Source of the DNA: Vermamoeba vermiformis
Taxonomy: Eukaryota
Length of the DNA stretch: 64,000 nucleotides
Reading direction: 5' to 3'
NCBI GenBank assembly: GCA_045837725.1
Contig: JBEWZL010000076.1
Location: 124,001 to 188,000 of the forward strand
Both the position numbers and the translations under genes were made by a program. The notes under the pieces were generated by a model. The model had not been told where the DNA came from and made no database searches. It worked only from the letters and a program-made list of their open reading frames with translations. Positions 6,585-62,300 of this stretch are shown here, piece by piece. Within the stretch, counting starts at the first letter, position 1. Every line of letters starts with the position of its first letter.

Positions 6585-7715
6585 ATGAGTCGGTTGTTTG
6601 TACGTGTGATTGAGGGAAAACAGATCGTCGAACCTGACACACCATCGAGGTAGATCCAATAAGATAAATTGCCTTCCTTTGAATGAAAAGTACAAAATTC
6701 ATTATTTTATATTATCGCAATTAATGAAGTCAACGATTTTTTAAATTCATTCGTTCTTCAGATCTTGTTTACTGACGCCTTATAAATAGTTGCTATGTCG
6801 TAGTTAAATACAACGCTACAAGAAAACGAACGAAACGAATTGAACAAGAATACAGCCCTCGCTGGGACCAAACCGTCAAATTCAACCTCCAAGAAAACGA
6901 AAATACCGTCAAGATCAGAGTTTATGTAGGTCATATAGACTAAATATTACTTGCGTATAAATTAGCAACATATGAACCGATTTAACTCTTTCTCCAAGAA
7001 CGCGAAGCAAAGGATCGGACATCTGAAAATCGGTTTCAACCCCGATAAGGAAGAAGAACAGATATTCGAAGAGAAACTTGCACAAGGATCCTTAGTCATA
7101 GGTATTAAATGCCAGGTTAGTAATTACTTTGATGGCACTCAGTGTAACAATATCTTTTTTGGAATTCCAATTAATTGTGTCCTCATTTTTATTCATTACA
7201 ATTAAATATTATATTAAACGAATCTTTAGGTGGATTCATCGAGCAGTTCTTCGTCATCATCGGAGTCATCATCCGATTCAACTGAATCACCTTCAAGTAG
7301 TTCCGCGAGCAGTGTCAGCAGCGTTAGCAGCGTTAGTGTTAGTGCTAGTTTGCCTAATTTAGGCAATGACGGTGGTTCTAGCGGCAATCCAAGTGCTCCT
7401 AGTGGAGGTTCGACAGGCGATAATAATACAGTTGAAATGACGAGCCCATCTGGCGGAGGATCGGGCGGTACTAGTGGCCCAGGCACGAGTGGACCGAGCG
7501 GAAATACTGGTGGAAATACTGGTGGCGGGTCTCATACAATTGGACATAGTCATCATGGAGGCGGAGGTATAAACAACGACAATAACTCTGGATGTGGTGA
7601 TTGTGATTGTGGCGATTGTGGTGATTGTGATTGCGATTGCAAGTGCGACTGTGACTGCGACTGCGATTGTGACCTAGATTGTGGAGGAGATGATGACTGT
7701 TGTACTATTCTATAA
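6585..7715 (+). CDS. C2-domain protein with Ser/Gly-rich linker, (Cys-Asp)n tail and C-terminal CaaX (CCTIL)
   Basis: Four exons: MSRLFVRVIEGKQI...S|CYVVVKYNATRKRTKRIEQEYSPRWDQTVKF...VY|NAKQRIGHLKI...CQ|VDSSSSS...CGDCDCGDCGDCDCDCKCDCDCDCDCDLDCGGDDDCCTIL*. Confidence 0.8.
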
Positions 7716-17073: not shown

Positions 17074-17595
17074 GCGCAAGATCTCAGGTACCTTTATTAT
17101 CTTGCCGGCCTTTTTGTTATTGTTATACGTAGATTGTTATCTAAGATGCTTTTATGCGATTTGATGTGCAGCGAGTGCTTCACATTGGATTGTCTGACGT
17201 GTCTTGGATCACGCGATCTGCACCCAAAATGTACATAAAACAATATTTCTAAACCTATCCAGAGTCCAAATGACCTCACATCATCTTACTGCCCCCATCT
17301 ACAATCCATAGTGCTGTAATAATGCACTGTGGCTAACCTCCCTACAGATCACAAGATTCAACAAATGAGCGGATGCGTTCAACCAGGGTTTGCAATTCTG
17401 CTTACTGACTAACCGGTTTGCTCTTCCGTAGTACACCTGTACACTATAGATACGCTATGCGTTGGTTGATTCAACGAATATGACACTATTTTGAGACATG
17501 CACGGACCTTTGACTATGTTTGACTTTGTTCGTCACCTTGTTTTGTTCGATTTTTCCGTGTGCGAGTTTTAGTATTTTCAATTCAAACAGCAACC

Positions 17596-18051
17596 ATGGA
17601 AGCATTATATCGTGGATTGGAATTGCCCTTTTATATTTTTAGGGTGCCCAATTTGAAGCTCAAAACGCCTCAAATCCCAGATTTGGCTCCTATGACCGTG
17701 TTCTACTTGGTCTTCCTCTCTTACTTCTTGGTCGCATCTGGCGTCGTTTATGATATTATTTCAGACGCCCCTGCTATGGGTCAAGTCACTGACGAAGTCA
17801 CTGGTGCTCAAAAGCCCGTTGTATTTATGAAGTACAGAGTCAATGGCCAATTCATCTACGAAGGATTGGCTGCTGGAATGTTGTTTTCGCTTGGAGGACT
17901 TGGATTTATTATTTTGGACAAAGCAAACAACAAGGGCATCTCCGAACGAGACCGTTACGTGCTCATGTTTGCCGGTGGAGGCGCCATCTTGTTGGCTTAC
18001 AACCTTTTGATTGTATTCTTGCGAATTAAGATCCCTGGCTACCAAGGATAA
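17596..18051 (+). CDS. OSTC: Oligosaccharyltransferase subunit OSTC/DC2 (intronless)
   Basis: VPNLKLK...SYFLVASGVVYDII...P...KPVVFMKYRVNGQFIYEGLAAG...GGLGFIILD...FLRIKIPGY. Confidence 0.93.
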   Translation: MEALYRGLELPFYIFRVPNLKLKTPQIPDLAPMTVFYLVFLSYFLVASGVVYDIISDAPAMGQVTDEVTGAQKPVVFMKYRVNGQFIYEGLAAGMLFSLGGLGFIILDKANNKGISERDRYVLMFAGGGAILLAYNLLIVFLRIKIPGYQG

Positions 18052-33139: not shown

Positions 33140-34951
33140 TTAAGGCTTGAATCCAGTTACAATAGAATAATAAGCGTATGAAGGCGTGATATCAATGTTA
33201 ATGAATCCAATCTCCGTCAACGTTCTTTGCAACTCTTCAGCGCTGAATTGTTTGCCTCGTGTGTTGAGCAACATATGCATTGAGAAGCACGCTGCGGTCA
33301 AATCTCCGTCCTTATTGTCTCGTAGTAATATCTCGTGCACTATATATGGTATAATATTAATAAAACGTTTTACTGGCATTTAAATTCTTCCGCGCATCCG
33401 CAAAAATAATTTCAATGATGCTCAGCCACCATATTATACCATAAAGACACTCAATATGGACTAACATAATATGACATATAATGTATTACTTAGTCGCAAA
33501 ATTGAATTTTGATCTCTACCGGATCTAAATATCGTTGCTAAATGTACTTACGATGGATCCTGCCACCAGAGGGTAATGCATCGAAACTCTTCTTTGCTAA
33601 TATCTGACACGTGCTCCAGCTCCAATCGTGGAAGATATTTGAGAAGAAATGAGCATCGTAACCTTGCGGCCATTCCTCGGTGAACATGTTCAGCGGATGT
33701 GTATCAACTTTGCCTTCAACTAATAATAAAATGGGCCTATTAGCGCAAAATAATACTATAATCAACGCTATTAATATTAAAATGCGGTTCATAATGTTCA
33801 AGGTACGTGAATCTGGATTCAAATCCGATCGCGAAACTAATTTCTTTCAAATGTTGTTCTTACCTTTAAATTTCGCAATATATTCATGAGTAATTTTGCA
33901 CACGACGGGAAGTTCAGCGACGGTGATCTTTTCGAGCTGGTGTTGTTGTGCAATTGAAATGGCAAAACAGCCGCTGCCACCAGCCACGTCTAAAAATTTC
34001 TTAGTCTTGCTCCAATCATAATTGCGCGATGCTCCCTGTATAATAAAAGCATATTAGTACGATCTTAGTGAAAATAAAGCGTTTAAAGCGCTTAAAAGTC
34101 GACTCAGATCTCGCGATCGAATTTTAAATTTACTTCGTGCATCTCTGATAGACCGATAGAACGTGAAAATATGATATATATAATAGTATAGTGATGATAA
34201 CGTACAATAGCGGCGGCAAAGGAATGAGCTTGCATAGCGTTAGTTAGATGTCGAGCGCGGGCCTCAGATAAGTCGCCCATTTCCCATTCTTTAATTGGTG
34301 CGCTGTCCATTGGTGCTTTTGCCTTAATAACATTAAGCAATCTATTATGGTAATCATTCATAGGACCAGCGGACGCGAGCATAGACTTCCTGCAGCCAAA
34401 TCCAAAAAGTTAGAAACTGCATTTTTGCCTTCAAATAGCATATAATACGCACCAATAGAATACACTCTCTGGCAACAAATAAGTTCTAGCAGCATCGGTC
34501 AAGAAGAATTTGCCCAAATGTTTTGTAACGAGTTTTAATCCAGCAAGCACGGCCATAACAGCTTCAGCGGCACGAGCACTAAAAGAGACATTAGGAACAG
34601 CTATTATTATAATAGTTACGTACTCTAAGCCGAGTTTTTCGGTGATTTGTTCGAGGGTAAGGCTCTTTTCTATTCAAATTGTTAGATCGAGCTACCAAAA
34701 ACCAACGACAAACTTTAGTATTTAAAATAATACGAACCTTTATGTAATAATTCAAAAAGACCAATTTCAATGCTCACTGTCACGGTAGCAAGGTGGTGCT
34801 GGCTCATCCAAATATCCCTACGAAAATTTAATTAATTGATTATCGTGCAAAAATGCTATAAAAATTTATAACAAAATTATACGTACCATAAGATATTATC
34901 GGGAGTGGTGGGAGGCTCAATCTTAGATAGATCTTTTTGCAAGAAAGACAT
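33140..34951 (-). CDS. SAM-dependent O-methyltransferase (Methyltransf_2; ASMT/BchU/CrtF-like, with N-terminal dimerisation domain)
   Basis: IEIGLFELL...TLEQITEKLGL, AMQAHS, motif I FLDVAGGSG, NMFTEEWPQGYDAHFFSNIFHDWS, ALPSGGRI, TRGKQFSAEEL...GF. Confidence 0.9.
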
Positions 34952-35419
34952 AGCGATGCTGTATTAATACGGATATGCGGTATACTATTCGTTATGTGCT
35001 AGTAGTGCAGTAAAATACTAACTAATGCAAAAAATTCCTTTTTGACTTGTCCGCAAAGAACCTTCGGGAAAAAATCGATAGCTTCTGTGAAGGTTCGCAC
35101 GACTATTGCTGTACCGGCGCACGCGCAATGTGAATTGTGAGCGATAAGTAATATTTAGTAATCGAACGAGTCAATTCTATGCCGCGATATCTCCTGCGGT
35201 GCATCTTCCAGATTCGAAAAAAATCTGGATCTGAATTCTGCCCCGCTTCAAGTCTTTCCGCTGTCCATTCCTTTATAATTATATGTGGTGACAAATATTG
35301 CTTATGAAGGTTTTTGTGCGCTCTGTTTGTCCATCCAAAAAATGGAGATAACTTTTCATCAGGCATTTATTTTATTCAGCTCACAAATTCGAAATCGGAC
35401 ACATAAGCTCATAATAAAT

Positions 35420-38400
35420 ATGAATGAGCATTTTGGTATACCGGCAAACAACCCGAACATGCCGATGAACGATCCGTTTACGGGATTTAAACTCGACACT
35501 GACGGATCTTTCAAGCACTTCCCTGGAAACACGATAGTAAGCTTTTTAACTAAAGAAGAGCACTCAGTATGGTACAAAGCACTGCTTACCTCGCAAGAAA
35601 TACTTCGCTCAAGCCGGATTGCGCAATTTTTTTCGATCGTCCCGCCACAGACATTTCACATCACTATTTTCGATTTAATTACTGATGTTGGAAGAAACCC
35701 GCAGTATTGGCCCGCTCATATTCCTGTAAGTCACTATTATAGCATCTTTGGGTTTATTTTATTTATTTTTTTTCGGATTCACAATCATCTCACGCGATTA
35801 TTTTTTCGCTATCGCAATTTTATAACATTATAATAAGCTTAAAACTAATATATGTAATTAGCTGAGCGCTCCCCTCGAAGAATTAGAAGCAGAAATGATC
35901 CGAAGAACAAAGTACGTGATCTCGTTAGAAATAAATTCTATAACTACTAATATTACCAAATATAGAGCAATTTTCGATCGTGAACGATTGCATCCAACCT
36001 TATTTAAATTTAAATTTGCTGGAATTAAGTTGGGTTTGACGTTCCGAACTTTCAGTATACTTTTAGAACCGGCTGATGGTAGAACTGCCGATCTAATGAC
36101 TAAATGGCGTCGAGGTACTATCATATAATACTAACAATAATTTTGTGCCCGAAATACAGCTAGATCTGACTGAATTATTTTCAGAGGTGTCTTTGCATAG
36201 CGGAATTGGCTTTCGAGAGAAATTATTCCACGTAACTATGGCTTATCAACGTCAAGCTATTAGTCAAGAGTTCCTAGATGATATTAACAAATTGAATACG
36301 AGCTTGGAAGGGTACGCCTTAAAAATATTTATTGCAAATCCAGATCGGGACTTGAAAATAGCTCCCGTTGTATTTAAAAATGCTTATTAAATGTTATATG
36401 AACTAATTATGGCATTGTATAGGCTTTGGAACGATGCTATCAAGATTCAACCCGAAATAATTCCGCAATCGCCAGTACTCACATTTTTCAGGCAAGATCC
36501 GAAAGCTATTTCGATGATTAAGGCTAATTATACTATATTTATAGAGATATGATGGATTTTAGAACACTTCCGCTGTTTACATCAAACTTATTGCTGTCTG
36601 ATTTCATTACGTTGCGACAAAGTCAAAATCAACCGCAAGAAAAGCCAAAACCAAAAGAAATCATTCTTATATTGGGATACCAAGTCAAAAAAGTACGTAA
36701 TTAATATTAATATAATTATTATTGCCTAAATAAGCAAAAAACAATTGCGTTGTTTTAACGGATCCAAAAGATCTGAGTATAATTTACAAAATAATTGATA
36801 GTAAATATGATATCGTACTAATATGGTTATTATAGAGTGGTAGACCGCACGTTATAATGAAAAATCGATTGAAAAAAGCAGTTGGCGTTTACTTTGCAAA
36901 AGTGACCGAACACAATCAGCCTGGACGCGTGAGTTTCTTTTTGACAGGTGGATATACGACTGGTCATATTGAATCTGAAGCTACTGTTATGCGAAGATGG
37001 CTCTTAGACGGTAAGTCTGAAAGTTTCAAATCCAGATTGAGGATCGAGATTCGGTTTTGCGAAGAAACTTCGTGCTAATGCAGTATATTAATATAGGATA
37101 TGGTATTAGTCCCGACGCGATTTTAACGCCCGAAGAGCGAGCTCAAAATACCGTCGAGAGCGCTTATTTCAGCAAACGAAAATTATTGAAAGAAGGAATC
37201 AACACTGTAAGCAACGATTATCGATTGATTTCTTAATATATTAACTTATATGTATACTATAGGGTGATATTACAGTAATTACGAGCGATTTCCACTTGCC
37301 TCGTGCTTCGCTCGTGTTTTTACATTGCTTCGCAAAATCATCGGTAAGTAGCACTTTATGCATTCAATCAGCTATTATCAGTTTGTCTAGTATATATACC
37401 ACTCAATAAATTAAATATAAATTATTGCAATACGGTTATGAAGAGCGAGACTGCAGATATTTTAGATCGCAAAAAATCAGTCAGTTCTTTAAACACCAAT
37501 AACAATGACTCAATTCGATTTAAATTTTCTCCTAAGTTAATACTCATAAATAATTTAAATGATACTATTGAAACAGCGATAGCGATGCTTGTCCTGCTCT
37601 ACTGATCCAAAATTAATTTCCTTGTATTATTACAGTTCAGCGTCAATTTCGTGACAGCCCCCGCGAGCAACGAAGCCAAGCACGCCGATGCCGTCGAACA
37701 ATTGAAACAGCAAGAAATTGAATTGATTTCGCAGACCCCTGAACAGCTCAAAACATTCGACAAAAAGTTCACCGAACAAACGATTGCTAATTACGAATTT
37801 ACATTATGGGAGGATATTAAGAGGGGTAATATAGCGGGCGTAGAATATTGGCTGAAAAAACATGCTGGTCAAATTAATTCTCAATTTGATGAAAATGGAA
37901 GAACGCCGTTGCATGTCTTGGCTGGCTATGGAAACAGTGCGCCGCATATTCAAATTGCCCTATTGTTGTTGAAAAACAACGCGAATGTCAACGCAGCCGA
38001 TTTTCAGGTACCACATCCGCTCCTAAAAAAAATTAGTAAATCCGATCAGATCCAAAAACTTTCTAATCACCTAAATCCCATTACAATAATTATATTAACG
38101 CTTATTGGTATATTATAGGGCTGCAGACCGCTTCATATTGCCGCTGCAAAGGGTGCTACAGTCATGGCTAAAATGTTTTGCGAGTTCGGTGCTCAAAAAC
38201 AACTTGCAGGTAATTACAATGCAAAAATAAATATAAAACGACTATTAATTAACACTATCATTACATTTAATAGGCCAAGGACCATTTTGGAAAGGAAATT
38301 TGACGCCTCCTGAGATCTTAAGTTTAGATGAGATCAAACAATCGATCAGCGAAGTAGACCACTCGATTATGACGCTAGGACTGCACTGGAATAGAACGGA

Positions 38401-39384
38401 CAAAAAGAACGTATTTTTAGTGCGTCATGCTGAGTCAATTGCTAATCGTTGGTACGGCTACAAAAAACCCATCTCGATCTTGGATCCGAGAATTTCCGAA
38501 GCAGGTGCGTAACACGAATATAACCGTAGAGATATATATTAATAATGAAATGTCAGGCGAGAAGAGTTTAGCGCAATTACGTGAGGCTACAGCACCATCA
38601 ATTCAAAATATGAAAATCGATCTGATTTTTGTCTCGCCTCTGACTCGTGCTTTGCAAACTTGCTTAGGAATTTTCGAACAAGCTGCCTTAGCTCAGGTAT
38701 TGTACAATACAGATTTCTTTTACGGTTTCGTTTTTGTCATTGTTTGAATCTGGATTCGTTTTGTACTAACTTAATTATTTTTCTAAGAATATCCCAATCA
38801 TCGTCGACGAGCGCATTAGCGAACACTTAGCAGATATCAGCGATATTGGCAGACCTAAATCAGCGCTCATGAAAGAGTTTTTGTGCCCGCAGTTGAAGTG
38901 GGACAAACTCAAAGAACTTTGGTGGTACACGCCTCAGGGACCTGTAAGTATATCATGTCTTAGTACCTATAGTACTACATTCAGTGCTGTATATGATATT
39001 CTTGCCTGTCCTTATTAATCGTTTCTTTTACTAGAGCGAATTGACTCCGCCAAACATAACGCAAGTAGCCAAAGAACCAATTGAACACTTTAAGTACGTA
39101 ATATTCGAATCACATCTATTTATTGAGCTAAAAAATAATAACTTAAAATTGTTGTCGAAGAGAAAGTTGTCGAACAATTAATTTTCGTAGCATTTATTCA
39201 GGTGATAATAGTGACAGTAGCTTATTCTATATTTTCTAGGCACCGCTTGACAAGCTTTTGGAAAGATTTGGTCGCTCGCCCTGAGATGAACATTGCCGTG
39301 GTGGCGCATGCGGGAGTGCACAGAGTACTGTCAAGAAAAGAAGCAAAGTTAAGAAACTTGGAGATATATCCTATGATAGTTTAA
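35420..39384 (+). CDS. Fusion protein: DUF1868-type 2H phosphoesterase + DUF218 (YdcF/ElyC) + ankyrin repeats + histidine phosphatase (PGM-like)
   Basis: In-frame spliced path: FKLDTDGSFKHFPGNT, HITI, HVTM, FFR|DMMDF; IILILG...NRLKKA...LTGG...SEA...EERAQNTVESA...VITSDFHLPRA; GRTPLHVLA, RPLHIAAAKG; FLVRHAES, VSPLTRALQT, DERISE, VVAHAG. Confidence 0.8.
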
Positions 39385-39642
39385 AAGGACTATTTAATAT
39401 AACAATAACAGCTGTAGATACAACGAACAAAAAGCACTTCAATCCTAACTATTTCTACGTTATTTTTCGGCGTTAAATCGTGCTTACCATTTTAATTCTA
39501 TAATCATATAACAATATTCCCTTACATTTAATTTACTAGTCCATTACTTTACAAATTCGATTCAAAGATAGATTTTGTTCGAAGCGTTTTCTTCCTTTAT
39601 AATCTTTTTGTATCTCAATATATAACCACGAATATACTCAAC

Positions 39643-41873
39643 ATGATATCTCATAAGAGTTCATTGTCGAAGATCAGCGCGACCAAGCTGTTGTCTTCTA
39701 TGGAGTACGTATTGTAGCGGATGAAAATAGATCTTCCGTATTTACTCGTCAAATATTCTAATAAAATTCGTCATAATTATAGCCCAGGTGTTCAATTGAA
39801 GGGACAACCAACGGAGCGAGCGAGCATCGAATTACTGCGAGATCCGAATTTAACCCTTGATAAGGCGTTAACAGATGTGGCGCTGATGGCCGGCTTTAGA
39901 GAGTTTTTACATAGTATTAAAGCCAATGAAGCGTTGTCGTTTTGGATCGAAACGGGTAAGTCTTTAAACTCCTCGTTAAATAATATTAAAATATTTATTT
40001 AGAGCTGTACCTGACTATCCCCGCAAAACTTATGATGAAAAGAGCCAAAGAAATATGGGAAAAATACTTTAACAAGAACTCGCCCTATTTTATGTATATA
40101 GACGATTTAGACCCCGAGGTAAAATTCGATTAATTAATTTTGGCTCGATCTAATCCGCTGGTACAAAAAGGACTTAAAAAAGCAAGTTGAGGCCGGACCG
40201 AACCGCGATATATTCAAAAAGGCCCAAGACCAGACCTGGTATATTTTAACTATGCAATGCTGGGTCAGCTTCAAAGCCTCGCAGTATTGGGATGATCTGA
40301 TCAAGAGTACGTTTTCTAAATATTATGTCAAGTATTAATATACTCCTAGCTCGACCCCTATCGCCTAATACGGATACTAAGAAGCCACGAGTAAGAACTC
40401 AGACGCTAGATAATTTAGAGCAATTCTTAGCTCGTAGAACCTCCGTAACTACAACCGGCGAATTGGAGCTTGAGGACGTCATCTATAGCAAAGACCTGCT
40501 TATAAGCTTCATGGAGCACCTCACTAACCTCAACGTATCGTATTTGTTGGAATTTTCTTTGGATGCCGGTACGTTTTTTTCAGATCTCATTCCAAAGAAT
40601 ACTAATTATTAATCGACGGATTAGACTGCTTTGCTTTACAACCACAAGATGATGGTATTAAAGAGCGAGCGATAGCATTATGGGGCCGGTACACAAACTT
40701 TACGAACTCGATCTTCCCTAGCGCAAGAATGGATTTCCAAGTAATACCGAGATATGCTCAAATACGTCTTATTAACGAATATTATACAGGATTGGGCACA
40801 ACAATTGCATTCTAAACCAACGCCAAAGTTATTTATGGATATTCGAAACTTCTGCTGGTTCCAGCTGCACAACAAATACTTCCCCGACTTCCTCAACAAC
40901 ATCGTTAAAAAGAACTACCTCGATAATGTCAATGTCCACTATAAGAACAAATTCGTCATTGGGCTCGCTGAGAATCTCGTACAATTAAGGTAATTTCCGA
41001 ATTTTTTAAATAAGCAGAAGTAATGCTATATTATCGTTTTATTAATATTTATGAATATTTTAGGCTGTCGCAAGGCTTGGTGCCTAAAAATAAGCTGACG
41101 TCGCTTTGGCGAAGATTGTTCGAGTACAAGATCCTCCACAAAATCCTCAAGGTTCAAGATTTGATCGATCGACGTCTATTTGGTACTTTTAAGGGATTTT
41201 TATATTCTCTATACGCGGAGGAATATTTGGAATTTTGGCTTGAAGTTGGTGAGTTCCGCTCGGATTTACGCCTCATGATTACGTGTACGGCCGAACTAAC
41301 TATAGAATTCGTAGAGCTATATAAATTAGAGCCGCAAGTTAATAGGCGCGTGACTGGCATGGAAATTTACAAAAAGTTTTTGGATCCTAAGAGCGAAACT
41401 GCGTTGTCGATAGATGGCACCAAGCCCGAGGTAAAATATCTTGATATCGATAAGGTCATATTCAAGTGATACTAACTATAATATTTGTAGGCTATCAAGT
41501 CTAAAATCGAGAAAGAAAATCCAGTGCCGCTGGATTTGTTTGATAAGGCTCAAAATGCGGTCTTAGCGCTGTTTAGAACCAATTTCTTCGGTTCATTTTT
41601 GCAATCAAAACTGCTAAAGGAGCATTTGGAGGGTAAGAATAGTGACTCACCGCAATGCTGACGTTGCAAGATCCGATCGAGTAACTGATTCTTGTTTGTA
41701 GGTCATGATAACACCTTGGAGCCGAAGCCTACGGACCACGTGAAAGAATACAAATATTGGTAAGTATTTGAATAATAATTAAGCTGATCTAGCGGCGTTA
41801 TGAATAATTACGTAATTATTGACTGGATTTCAATTCTTAAAGGCACGATAAAAGCGCCAGTGAAGATCTATAA
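39643..41873 (+). CDS. Protein with three tandem RGS (regulator of G-protein signalling) domains
   Basis: RGS1 GFREFLHSIKANEALSFW...AKEIWEKYF...IFKKAQ; RGS2 SFMEHL...LEFSLDA...YFPDFL; RGS3 FKGFLYSLYAEEYLEFWLEV...EIYKKFL...LFDKAQ...SFLQS. Confidence 0.82.
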
Positions 41874-42200: not shown

Positions 42201-43171
42201 ATGTACGCGTTGAAAATCAAGTTAGGCAAAGTCACTCGCAGAGTCTCGTTGAATGCAGACGAGACTTCGTTCGATAAGCTTAAAGAAACCCTCAAGAGAT
42301 TGTTCAGCAACGAATTGACCACTGATGCTTTCGTTGTGAAGTACAAGGACGATGAAAATGACCTCATTACGGTAAGATTTGGATTTATTAATTTTGATCG
42401 AGCATGCAAATTCGAAAATTCACTGTGTTACCAGAATCTATTGTTGGTAACACGAGGAATATCAATATAATAATATCTAAAATTTCCCTATGCTGTATTG
42501 TTCAGAAGATCTGAATTCTGAACTTTCCTTATTTTCAGATCAACACCGACGACGAGTTGAAAGAGGCCTTTAACGTGCAAAAAGAAAAGAAGCTCATTAG
42601 ACTCTTAGTCATCGTGCCTTCTGCCCAATCAGATGAGCCTGAATGCTGCTTTGGCAAGTTCATCCAAAAGGCACGCAAATGCGCTCAAGCGAACGGATGG
42701 TGCAATAACAGATCTGGCCAACAAGGCGCTCCTTGTGGTTGGGCTAAGCGTCGTCCTCTTTTGCTCGCTGGCTTGCTCTTCATGTTGTTCTGCCGCTGCT
42801 CATTCTTCTTCATCTTCTTGATCTTCGCTGGCATCGCTGCGTGCAAGATCGTGCGCAAGATCCGTGGTGGACAATGCGGCGCTTACAATGCCCGTGCCTG
42901 CCGCTGGGCTTGCCCCGTCCAGAACTCTTCAGCACCCGCTGCTGCTCCTCAACCCGCCGTTAACAACAACGCCACATCCAACTCCAACATTAGCAACAGC
43001 GCCAGTTCTTCATTGAACCAAAGCAGATCTGGCAACACCAAGTTTGAACAAATGTTGGCTACCTTAGAAGATATGGGCTTTGGTGATAGAAACGCGAACA
43101 TTCGTGCTTTAGTTGAGACTCGCGGAGATTTGACTGAAGCTGTTGTTCGTTTGACTGCTCAACGCAACTAA
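42201..43171 (+). CDS. PB1 + Cys-flanked hydrophobic membrane segment + UBA protein (p62/NBR1-like ends)
   Basis: PB1 with basic ALKIK and OPCA motif VKYKDDENDLIT|INTDDELKEAF; RRPLLLAGLLFMLFCRCSFFFIFLIFAGIAACKIVRK; UBA MLATLEDMGFGDRNANIRALVETRGDLTEAVVRL. Confidence 0.85.
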
Positions 43172-59394: not shown

Positions 59395-62300
59395 ATGGAT
59401 AAAATACAAGAATTAACAGGTAAATATAGATCTTTTGTGTAATATTTTTGATTAGTTCTGATCTTATTCTTAGTTGGGCAACCAATTCGTGCTCGTAATT
59501 CAAAAGGAGAATGGAGCGATGGAACTATAGTCACTATTAGTAATTCAAAATACACGATTAGATGGAACGATAATAATACAGAAGAAGAAATTACACCAGA
59601 TGCGATCAATAGCGGTAGGTATCTCGTAATTTAATCAACTTTGTAAATTCAGTATATTGATGAATTAATATATTTTTTGAACACCATTAAAGCGGTTATC
59701 TGATTAATACTTCAGGCCGGGCTTCTGCCAAGTGGATTCCCTTTACGTCAACGTCTACAGCCACCACACGCAGAAGATTTAGTACAGAGGCATCTCCACC
59801 TGTATTTGGCACATATAGGAGCTCTAAACAATATTCCCCAGTTGATTTGAGTATAGAAGAATCGGCTCACATTTCCAGTTCCGAACAAACACCGACTTCA
59901 CCAAGATCTGCCGCTGAAAATCAAAGCAGTGCCTCTAGCAATAATTCAGAGCCGACATCAGTTTCATCAATATCAACTAGTGAAAATTCAGCTAAATCAC
60001 CTCGTGCGACAGATCAAACCGTTAAAAAGAAAACTAGCAGCAAGCGATTAAAGCCTACAAAAGTTACCGCTGACACGGAGAAAAATAGTACTGTTAATAT
60101 AGAAGGCAATAAGACAACAGAAGTCGATACAAAAGATAAACCAACGGCAGATCTTCCTTCAACGGATGTGTCTGAGCCAACACCGAAGGATAAATCAGTT
60201 AAGCGCTCATCATCGAAGAGAAATTCTGGTAAAAGGAAAGACGGAATTACACGCGGCGAAAGTAAAGTTAAAGGAACGGATGCCGTGACACCTGCGACAG
60301 CTGAAGTTGACAGCCCAAAAACAGAACCAAAAGTTGAATCAAAACCGAAGAAAAATGACAGCAGCGTTGCAAAGGGCGAGTCAAAAGTTAAGATTAAACT
60401 GCCCGTAGAAAATATAGACAACGAAGTGAAATCTCCGAAGGGCGATAAACCCCCAAAGTCACCAAAATCAAGCAGAAAAACAACGTTAGACGAATCAGGA
60501 AGCAGCAAAAGTGGATCAAAATCTCCACGAGACGGCGACAGCAAAGCAGAGATTAAATCTCCGAGAGGTGAAAAGGCACCCAAATCGAGCAGAAAGTCCG
60601 AAGATAAGCCATCAGCCGACCTTGAAAATTCAAGCTCGGTGGATACGAAGGACAAACAATCGAAAAGAAAGAGCGAAAAACGCAAGAGCGATAAGAGTAA
60701 AACCGAAAAGAACACAAAAGTCAAAGGTTCAGAAGGTCAAAAGACCGGAGAAGTTTTGTCACCAAGGGGCGAGACTACCAAGCAGAAGAGCCCTGATGAA
60801 AAGCGCAAGCCTTCTGGCAACAATGAAACTAAAGCGGACGTTAAAACAGAGCCCAAAGCAGACGTTAAGACCGAGATCAAAACAGATTCCAAAGTCGATG
60901 TTAAGGCCGAGGTCAAGACAGAAACAAGCGCTCAAGAGCAAGCAGAAAAGCCCGTGGAAAATGTTAAAACAGAAGAAAAACCTACCGAGACCAAGCCTGT
61001 CGTGCCCCCAGGCGCAGCCAAGCCCAAAGCAGCCGGCGCAAAGAAGCTGTTGGGACCAAAGATGCCCGTGTTGAAACCTCCTTCACAAGCGTACATTCCA
61101 CGTCCAGCTGACGAAGCATTAATTTCACCGCGCAGTGCAGCAGCGAAGAAGCAACAAGCACCATCGGAGACAGGCCCGAAATCTCCGATGACCTCGCCAC
61201 GTGATGCGCCATCAACTCCTAACCCCAAGTCACCGCCGACTTCTCCACGAGAGTCCGGTCCTGCCAAAGTTGGCGCTGCAAAACTCGCCGGGCCTTCACG
61301 AGAAGGATCACCGATGCGCGTAGCACCAGCTGGCGCAGTGAAGAAAGTTCCATCGGCTCATGTTAAAGTGGCGCTAACAGCTGATGCCAGTACGAAGCCT
61401 GAAGTGACTGTGCCTAAGGAAAGCGTTCAAGTTGATTCATCAAGTTCGACGAGTAGTTCAATGGAGATTTCGAATGTTGTCGTTAAAGTGGAAAGTAATA
61501 GTAATAGTAGCGCACAAGAGCAGCCGCTGAAGACTGATTCATCGAGCGTTTCTGGCGCGGAGCCTGAAAAAGTGCTGACAACGATTACGGTCGATGTCCC
61601 TACAGTAAGCCAAGTACTTCATTATACTAGCATTATGATACTAATCGTAATGATTTGTAGCCTACAAATGCTGAGCCAGTTGCAGAATCTGCGCCTAAAT
61701 CTCCGAGATCTCCGAAGGGAGATGTATTTGTACTGGAATGGTCGTTCAATCAAACTGAACGAAACGTGCACATGGCAGTAGGAAAGAAAGGCACGAGCGT
61801 TAATTGGCGTAATGAAGAATGGGGATTAGCAAAAGGAATTGCGCCGTTAACGAATCAAAAGCAGTTCATTGAAGTCGTTCGAGTTAAAGGCAAATCTCAA
61901 CAGTTTCAGATAGGTATATGCAAAGAAGACGTCAGGGTCGAGCAGTCTTACAAAAATTCAGTCATTTCTCCGAATATTATTCCTGGAACTTGGGTACGAA
62001 TTATTTTCATGAACGTGATGAGAATTGTGTACTGACCTACTTGCGACTAAAGGAAACCATTAAAGTTCGTAGATCTAAGGCTGGAGATGTTATAGGCTTG
62101 CTTATTGATATGCAAGAGAAAATGCTGACTTTGTTCGTCAACGGATCTCCTGAACAAGAAGCTAGTTTTGCCAACAAACACGAATGGGGAACAGTAAGGA
62201 ATCGCCTTTCACTTATACATAAATCTAATATTATATAGGCTGATCCGATAGTCAATCCGATATTCCCTTTCTTCTGCATTCACGGCGATCTCGAGCTACA

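Follow-up and report, generated by a model that had tools for sequence, protein, structure and literature searches.

The 64,000-nucleotide (nt) stretch of Vermamoeba vermiformis DNA analysed here (contig JBEWZL010000076.1, positions 124,001 to 188,000; hereafter the window) carries, at 35420-39384 of its forward strand, one expressed eukaryotic gene of 16 exons. This gene very probably encodes a single-chain protein of four modules: a 2H phosphoesterase of the DUF1868 branch, a DUF218 domain resembling the Upr enzymes of Escherichia coli, ankyrin repeats and a histidine phosphatase. The fusion is a multi-module phosphoesterase with animal UBASH3 as its nearest relative in design. Along the chain, the modules are arranged as follows:

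35420-36569, forward strand: 2H phosphoesterase module, DUF1868/PF08975 branch (amino acids 21-242, exons 1-6)
36650-37680, forward strand: DUF218/Upr-like module (approximately amino acids 270-420; end of exon 6, exons 7-9 and start of exon 10)
37759-38209, forward strand: about 2.5-3 ankyrin repeats (approximately amino acids 447-560, exons 10-11)
38402-39381, forward strand: histidine phosphatase module, branch 1 (approximately amino acids 603-800, exons 12-16)

An initial annotation of this sequence had proposed DUF1868, DUF218, ankyrin and histidine phosphatase in this order within 35420-39384, joined by one in-frame spliced path, and Pfam recovers all four families there (scans were run on stop-free exon pieces). 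The coding region amounts to 2409 nt, or 802 codons plus stop, with the frame open throughout, and the stretch across the gene is eukaryotic in character, having short GT..AG introns and no long bacterial-style open reading frames (ORFs). Its exons are:

35420-35725, 35862-35911, 35966-36114, 36185-36311, 36423-36491, 36545-36692, 36836-37010 and 37097-37206, forward strand: exons 1-8
37263-37343, 37636-38007, 38119-38209, 38274-38504, 38557-38696, 38788-38943, 39035-39093 and 39240-39384, forward strand: exons 9-16

Is this path used in the cell? Four public runs were mapped on 35000-39800, namely X1 (contigs that skip introns and are mostly 95-99% alike to the window), X8 (a set of RNA-seq contigs with an identity of 99% or more), and X10 and X12 (raw RNA-seq reads from a relative at 90-95%). 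RNA supports 14 of the 15 splice joints, 13 of them as joint rows and one as a loose end only, which, along with the open frame, bears out the proposed path through all modules:

35725/35862, 35911/35966, 36114/36185 (loose end), 36311/36423, 36491/36545, 36692/36836 and 37010/37097, forward strand: joints of introns 1-7, seen in RNA
37206/37263, 37343/37636, 38007/38119, 38209/38274, 38504/38557, 38696/38788 and 38943/39035, forward strand: joints of introns 8-14, seen in RNA

Two places at which the initial annotation suspected that the gene might break, 36545 and 37350-37600, coincide with the following introns, both of which are spliced out in RNA:

36492-36544, forward strand: intron 5, bounded by GC..AG, 53 nt long and within the 2H domain; a single X1 contig and a single X12 read each contain its joint
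37344-37635, forward strand: intron 9, 292 nt, the longest intron and within the DUF218 domain; supported by one X1 contig, one X12 read and four loose ends

A 458-nt X1 contig runs from 36906 to 37797 across three introns, intron 9 included. The donor of intron 5, GC in the window, is a canonical GT in two related metagenome contigs (L088 and L089), and intron 9 measures only 154 nt in L089 as compared to the 292 nt in the window. Since both contigs carry an in-frame stop shortly upstream of ATG 35420, this codon is fixed as the start; an ATG at 35342 was considered and rejected because the relatives have an in-frame stop there. The product contains no hydrophobic segment (the highest 19-residue Kyte-Doolittle mean is 1.28) and no signal-like N-terminal stretch, so that, as judged from its sequence, it is soluble and presumably cytosolic.

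The first module belongs to the 2H enzymes, which open cyclic phosphodiesters including Appr>p (the 1'',2''-cyclic phosphate of ADP-ribose); for its DUF1868 branch, to our knowledge, no biochemical function or substrate is known. PF08975 (2H-phosphodiest/DUF1868) matches exon 1 with an expectation value (E) of 7.5e-19 and 68.3 bits (cut-off 21), and a profile from 40 stand-alone DUF1868 proteins matches the spliced product at 158.4 bits over amino acids 21-242, corresponding to profile positions 11-222 of 228. With the latter profile, exon 1 alone reaches 94.2 bits and exons 2-5 alone 40.2, compared to 4.8 for the best of 1000 shuffles. Both 2H motifs, HITI (amino acids 80-83) and HVTM (184-187), align with the family columns HMTV and HITL, and the nearly invariant C-terminal family motif F.DM..F reads FF/RDMMDF here, split by the exon 5/6 joint. 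Because the profile alignment crosses this joint, the ATGATG at 36551 represents the 'MM' of the conserved motif and not a new start, which likewise speaks against a break at 36545.

The first 240 residues span the whole family profile of the stand-alone bacterial DUF1868 proteins (PF08975; Atu0111, 2fsq), and the two H-x-T motifs and F.DM..F are preserved in them. Amino acids 1-234, used as a tblastn query, match 80 of 80 bacterial DUF1868 loci, with the best alignments covering residues 22-233. The bacterial ORFs are unfused (204-309 residues in 78 of 79 cases and 380 in the other), whereas the domain in the window heads a chain of four modules. The structure model of one such bacterial homologue, P0003 (predicted local distance difference test, pLDDT, 92.8), has its best match in Atu0111 (2fsq; template modelling score, TM, 0.85), followed by archaeal LigT-like proteins, the Arabidopsis Appr>p cyclic phosphodiesterase (CPDase; 1fsi), AKAP18, ASCC1, LigT and Usb1, with no sub-type prominent.

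DUF218, the second module, was called poorly characterised in the initial annotation, a description that is out of date. A bioRxiv preprint dated 15 October 2026 reports that SanA, ElyC and YgjQ of E. coli, renamed UprA, UprB and UprC, hydrolyse the phosphoacetal (sugar-1-O-diphosphate) bond by which the first sugar is attached to undecaprenyl diphosphate; water attacks from the side of the sugar, and the reaction requires Mg2+ or Ca2+ (10.64898/2026.10.14.759067). The same preprint names T125, H149, R152 and E182 as the catalytic residues of SanA, several of which are missing from the cytoplasmic YdcF; it presents the first biochemistry for DUF218, on membrane-bound bacterial enzymes only, and contains no mention of eukaryotes (10.64898/2026.10.14.759067).

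In the window, PF02698 (DUF218) matches in three pieces that are collinear in both gene and profile (16.2, 18.7 and 16.9 bits; profile 14-52, 46-92 and 84-103). The first strand of the domain, ILILG in exon 6, aligns with VVLG of ElyC and SanA; FHLPRA stands at the end of exon 9, and the opening of exon 10, 'FSVNFVTAPASNE', aligns with 'LPAPANQL' of ElyC. When the four E. coli DUF218 genes (SanA, ElyC, YgjQ and YdcF) were aligned with the spliced model by MAFFT, Thr 360 (NTVES), His 389 and Arg 392 (both FHLPRA) shared the catalytic columns of SanA (T125, H149, R152), ElyC and YgjQ, and YdcF had neither the Thr nor the His. The stretch 'NYEFTLWEDIKRG' was considered as a counterpart of ElyC 'GYETLGRIW', which would have supplied a candidate catalytic Glu, and was rejected because it belongs to the first ankyrin repeat. 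The module shares its family and its Thr/His/Arg columns with UprA/SanA, UprB/ElyC and UprC/YgjQ. While those enzymes are membrane-anchored, periplasmic and act on undecaprenyl-diphosphate-linked glycans (10.64898/2026.10.14.759067), the anchor and the periplasmic location are absent here, the domain being internal to a soluble eukaryotic protein.

The ankyrin repeats score 28.2 bits with PF00023 (cut-off 21.1) and 27.0 with PF12796 (cut-off 27.3) on exon 10, and exon 11 gives a weaker Ank match. Within the phosphatase region, PF00300 (His_Phos_1) matches in two collinear pieces (21.3 bits at profile 34-66 and 15.9 bits at 125-157). The catalytic residues can be read off the sequence: RHAE (610-613), the Arg of LTRA (665-668), the Glu of DERISEH and AHAG (777-780). 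A profile of three E. coli seeds (YtjC, CobC and GpmA) matches amino acids 605-696 (exons 12-14) at 12.7 bits, compared to 9.5 for the best of 2000 shuffles; RHAE, LTRA and the Glu of DERISEH align with all three seeds, and the alignment ends on that Glu. Searches of PDB sequences with single phosphatase exons returned nothing significant, and a scan of NCBIfam added nothing. Together with the domains, the motifs quoted in the initial annotation are present in the product: HITI at amino acid 80, HVTM at 184, LTGG at 319, NTVES at 359, FHLPRA at 388, RHAE at 610, LTRA at 665 and AHAG at 777.

Conservation was examined at several distances. Among the 40 fixed differences to the relative's RNA reads that were tallied (those listed, of 146), 37 affect the third position of a codon, and 36 are synonymous. 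L088 and L089 are about 85% identical to the window in exon DNA and keep the lengths and splice sites of all exons that can be projected onto them. In L089, exons 1-11 are open and 497 of 529 residues are identical (94%). L088 extends to exon 12 and has exons 1-9 open, and a 1-nt indel in exon 10 (L088:7370-7742) breaks its frame; this indel, absent from L089 (26 differences from L088 in the first 2040 aligned bases), may stem from faulty assembly or mark an allele, perhaps a defective one.

Beyond this group, an exhaustive HMMER search with exon 1 returned 240 proteins at E <= 0.001. The best match, P0001, is a 171-residue prokaryote-style call of exon 1 itself (97% identity), with cluster members on Joint Genome Institute (JGI) contigs of up to 471 kb; most of the others are stand-alone proteins of 220-250 residues. 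An environmental protein, P0026 (348 residues, cut off by the end of its 1320-nt JGI contig), carries both PF08975 and PF02698, the latter as a partial match at its C-terminal end (E 4.8e-12, 46.4 bits), and is collinear with amino acids 24-371 of the spliced model (32% identity, E 4e-45). As this distant protein carries both domains in the same arrangement, the pairing of 2H and DUF218 is older than the species group.

A full four-module relative was found neither with exon 1 nor with P0026 among longer proteins, P0026 matched only itself among proteins of similar length, and scans with P0026 of viral and metagenome contigs yielded no fused relative. These searches were word-limited, and eukaryotic genes in the libraries are mostly called as single-exon fragments; because such searches are poorly suited to intron-rich genes, the absence of fused relatives is weak evidence of rarity. 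The four-module arrangement was thus not met elsewhere among the proteins and contigs searched, and we make no claim of uniqueness. In the literature searched, no text names DUF1868 and none names DUF218 together with a histidine phosphatase; mentions of DUF218 in a preprint on the antiphage system CBASS were word-start matches to DUF2188 and irrelevant.

Several relatives of the first module have architectures of their own. P0027 (504 residues) contains two 2H domains in tandem, in P0063 (537 residues, filling its 1628-nt contig) ~290 residues without a family match come after the 2H domain, and P0050 has ~215 unassigned residues ahead of its DUF1868 domain. The protein-atlas cluster nearest to P0026 (the only match listed, and a weak one with a score of 0.75) comprises 120 members, 38% of them with PF08975; those members that have a record belong for the most part to Nucleocytoviricota, so giant viruses may carry DUF1868-type 2H enzymes.

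How firm, then, is the reading as one chain? A number of points weigh against it. The transcript evidence is a tiling of spliced pieces, and no one read or contig spans the entire gene. The final joint, 39093/39240 (intron 39094-39239), is missing from the joint rows listed and is placed by frame and homology. Depth in X10 and X12 is several-fold higher in the 3' half (37700-39000) than in the 5' half (35400-37400), with which an additional shorter transcript may be compatible; uneven mapping is, on the other hand, expected from these two runs because their reads stem from a relative at 90-95%, and the depth of X1 contigs is fairly even along the gene (2-7). At the level of domains, each PF02698 exon piece scores below the gathering cut-off of 27.6 bits, and so do both PF00300 pieces with respect to theirs (21.7 bits).

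Domain borders fall inside exons: exon 6 holds the last DUF1868/2H motif and the first DUF218 strand, and exon 10 the DUF218 tail and ankyrin repeats. The spliced product lacks Met between amino acids 335 and 545, and an ankyrin-phosphatase protein made on its own would thus find no start codon ahead of the second repeat. That the locus instead makes separate products (2H, DUF218, and ankyrin plus phosphatase) through alternative starts or ends, with the spliced read-through as a minor form, would suit the skewed X10/X12 depth and the want of a molecule across the gene, yet is very improbable given these exon-internal borders, the Met-free stretch, the RNA joints of introns 5 and 9, the even X1 depth, the frame and splice sites kept in L089 and the 2H-DUF218 fusion in the distant P0026.

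What might the four-module chain do? As far as sequence can tell, the recognisable catalytic residues of all three hydrolase modules are in place, with one DUF218 Glu left unplaced. Our preferred reading, which we hold tentatively and at a little under even odds, is that one chain processes the phosphoesters of a small molecule in sequence, the individual steps and the substrate being proposed from the families involved. In a first step, the 2H domain would open the cyclic phosphodiester of a small sugar- or nucleotide-linked phosphate. The Upr-like domain would then hydrolyse a glycosyl-(pyro)phosphate (phosphoacetal) bond, and the histidine phosphatase would remove the remaining monoester via a phospho-histidine intermediate, as branch-1 histidine phosphatases do with phosphomonoesters in general. 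The ankyrin repeats might tether the enzyme to a partner or to a place in the cell. The initial annotation had likewise suggested a single-chain route, from cyclic phosphate through a monoester to a dephosphorylated product, and a possible link to prey, on which the analysis turned up nothing in favour or to the contrary.

The steps proposed go together best with a cyclic phosphate in which the anomeric position takes part, as an Upr-like domain cleaves a bond of that type; the likeliest substrates thereby shift to anomeric or 1,2-cyclic sugar phosphates and away from RNA ends. On this more specific version of the pathway, in which either the 2-phosphate isomer or a leftover 5-phosphate could be the target of the histidine phosphatase, we are rather doubtful. 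The disposal of Appr>p in yeast and plants offers a precedent for its logic: a 2H CPDase opens the 1'',2''-cyclic phosphate to the anomeric 1''-phosphate, and a second enzyme, a macro-domain phosphatase on a separate protein, removes the phosphate. In the protein described here, the same two steps would be fused, and the remover would be the Upr-like domain, the histidine phosphatase or both. The Arabidopsis CPDase structures 1fsi and 1jh6 are among the structure titles matched by the P0003 model.

Bacterial gene neighbourhoods bear on the substrate of the first module. We collected 80 bacterial DUF1868 loci by a scan with a 10-sequence DUF1868 alignment (one of 40 proteins was too diverse for this purpose), and at 79 of the loci neighbours were called by a simple rule for ORFs. 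In a tally of immediate neighbours, which took in 119 of 155 ORFs from the first 60 loci, TonB-dependent receptor families occurred 18 times, solute-binding proteins nine times, inositol monophosphatase three times and a phospholipase C (PLC)-type phosphoesterase twice. Clustering of up to three ORFs per side (458 ORFs from the 79 loci, with Pfam run on ten cluster representatives) placed ROK proteins at 18 loci, a TonB-dependent receptor at 17, a MalK-type ABC ATPase at 11, ABC permeases at 10, 7 and 4, a PLC-type phosphoesterase at 7, solute-binding proteins at 7 and 6, and a major facilitator superfamily transporter at 5, counts that are not independent, as many loci come from related Proteobacteria. 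These neighbourhoods suggest the uptake and catabolism of an imported sugar(-phosphate)-like compound and not RNA repair.

The fusion could also be taken as a 'Rosetta stone', in which case DUF1868 2H enzymes, soluble Upr-like proteins and histidine phosphatases would share one class of metabolite, the anomeric or 1,2-cyclic phosphates of sugars or ADP-ribose, and the chain would perform a three-step disposal or salvage from cyclic phosphate via glycosyl phosphate to free sugar and phosphate. We consider this unlikely. If true, DUF1868 would gain its first function, and the Upr-like family would for the first time be tied to a substrate other than a lipid and to a role in the eukaryotic cytosol; if the modules act independently, the protein would be just another multi-domain protein of an under-sampled eukaryote. 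The fusion supplies a testable hypothesis on a substrate class shared by DUF1868 and DUF218, in a conveniently soluble protein.

Against a sequential pathway stand the following observations. The catalytic Glu of the Upr-like domain (E182 in SanA) could not be placed, the C-terminal region aligning inconsistently even among the E. coli proteins. Three hydrolytic steps exceed the need of the simplest candidate pathway, from Appr>p to ADP-ribose, and ankyrin repeats would be unusual in a plain metabolic enzyme. Moreover, tblastn with a few queries (the DUF218 and phosphatase parts of the model, plus the four DUF218 proteins of E. coli) detected no DUF218 or histidine phosphatase genes up to 6 kb away from any of the 80 DUF1868 genes in bacteria, and neither DUF218 nor His_Phos_1 is among the 25 commonest families in the immediate neighbours; the three-way coupling is therefore not mirrored in bacterial operons.

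A 2H domain and a histidine phosphatase in one chain are already known from the animal UBASH3/Sts/TULA proteins, a precedent that the initial annotation missed. As described in two papers (PMC10218301, PMC10253181), UBASH3A/B (Sts-2/Sts-1, TULA) combine, like the protein here, a 2H domain with two H-h-(S/T)-h motifs, an interaction domain and a C-terminal histidine phosphatase; in Sts-1 the motifs are HITL and HVTL, where the window has HITI and HVTM. By analogy, the protein might be a regulator in which the ankyrin repeats, as docking repeats suited to a recruited partner, bring phosphoproteins to the phosphatase, and the 2H domain (perhaps DUF218, too) acts on a small signalling molecule, in parallel and not in series. 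The likeness is, however, one of design only. UBASH3/Sts proteins are a metazoan family with UBA and SH3 and without DUF218 or ankyrin, their phosphatase acts on phosphotyrosine proteins, and their 2H domain is compared, in the same papers, with YjcG; here, DUF218 and ankyrin are present, UBA and SH3 were not found on the exon pieces scanned (E up to 1 or 10), and the 2H domain belongs to the DUF1868/Atu0111 branch, whose bacterial members lie in uptake loci. As a parallel regulator would also leave the DUF218 domain unexplained, we regard this function as improbable. An answer for the Vermamoeba protein could nevertheless inform UBASH3A/B, animal immune regulators whose 2H domain has no natural substrate yet.

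We are equally sceptical of a role in RNA 3'-end healing or in the salvage of 2',3'-cyclic nucleotides, where the 2H domain would generate a 2'- or 3'-monoester, the phosphatase would remove it and DUF218 would serve as an accessory or binding part. This would be classical 2H chemistry, and the fold neighbours of the family include LigT, Usb1, ASCC1 and AKAP18. Plant vacuolar RNA salvage is described as taking such a route by way of separate enzymes (PMC12369478), and the 2H domain of Sts-1 is reported to convert 2',3'-cyclic nucleoside monophosphates to 3'-nucleotides (PMC10218301, PMC10253181). Such a role would, however, leave an apparently intact Upr-like domain idle, and next to the bacterial DUF1868 genes one finds sugar-type transporters, ROK proteins and TonB-dependent receptors instead of RNA-repair genes. 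Nor is there a kinase or ligase module. Trl1, the tRNA ligase of fungi, joins ligase, kinase and 2H cyclic phosphodiesterase domains and likewise has its 2H module working in series with end-processing modules. In the protein described here, the partners are hydrolases, which points to phosphate removal and not to ligation.

Around the gene, the upstream flank (33847-34673, reverse strand) holds an O-methyltransferase gene with Methyltransf_2 and dimerisation-domain pieces, and the downstream flank (39718-41469, forward strand) a gene with an RGS domain; for neither is a functional connection with the fusion obvious. Scans of the 64-kb window for Rfam families and for tRNAs found nothing. Two low-complexity ORFs lie further away on the forward strand: a long Ser/Gly-rich one at 7230-7715 that ends in Cys-Asp dipeptide repeats, and a Lys/Ser/Pro-rich one of 696 codons at 59691-61781 with a strong AT skew (0.345). 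Finally, an OST3/OST6-family piece at 17524-18051 (forward strand, E 4.1e-09) and a UBA-domain piece at 42515-43171 (forward strand, E 3.6e-05) represent ordinary eukaryotic housekeeping genes and thus confirm the eukaryotic nature of the window.

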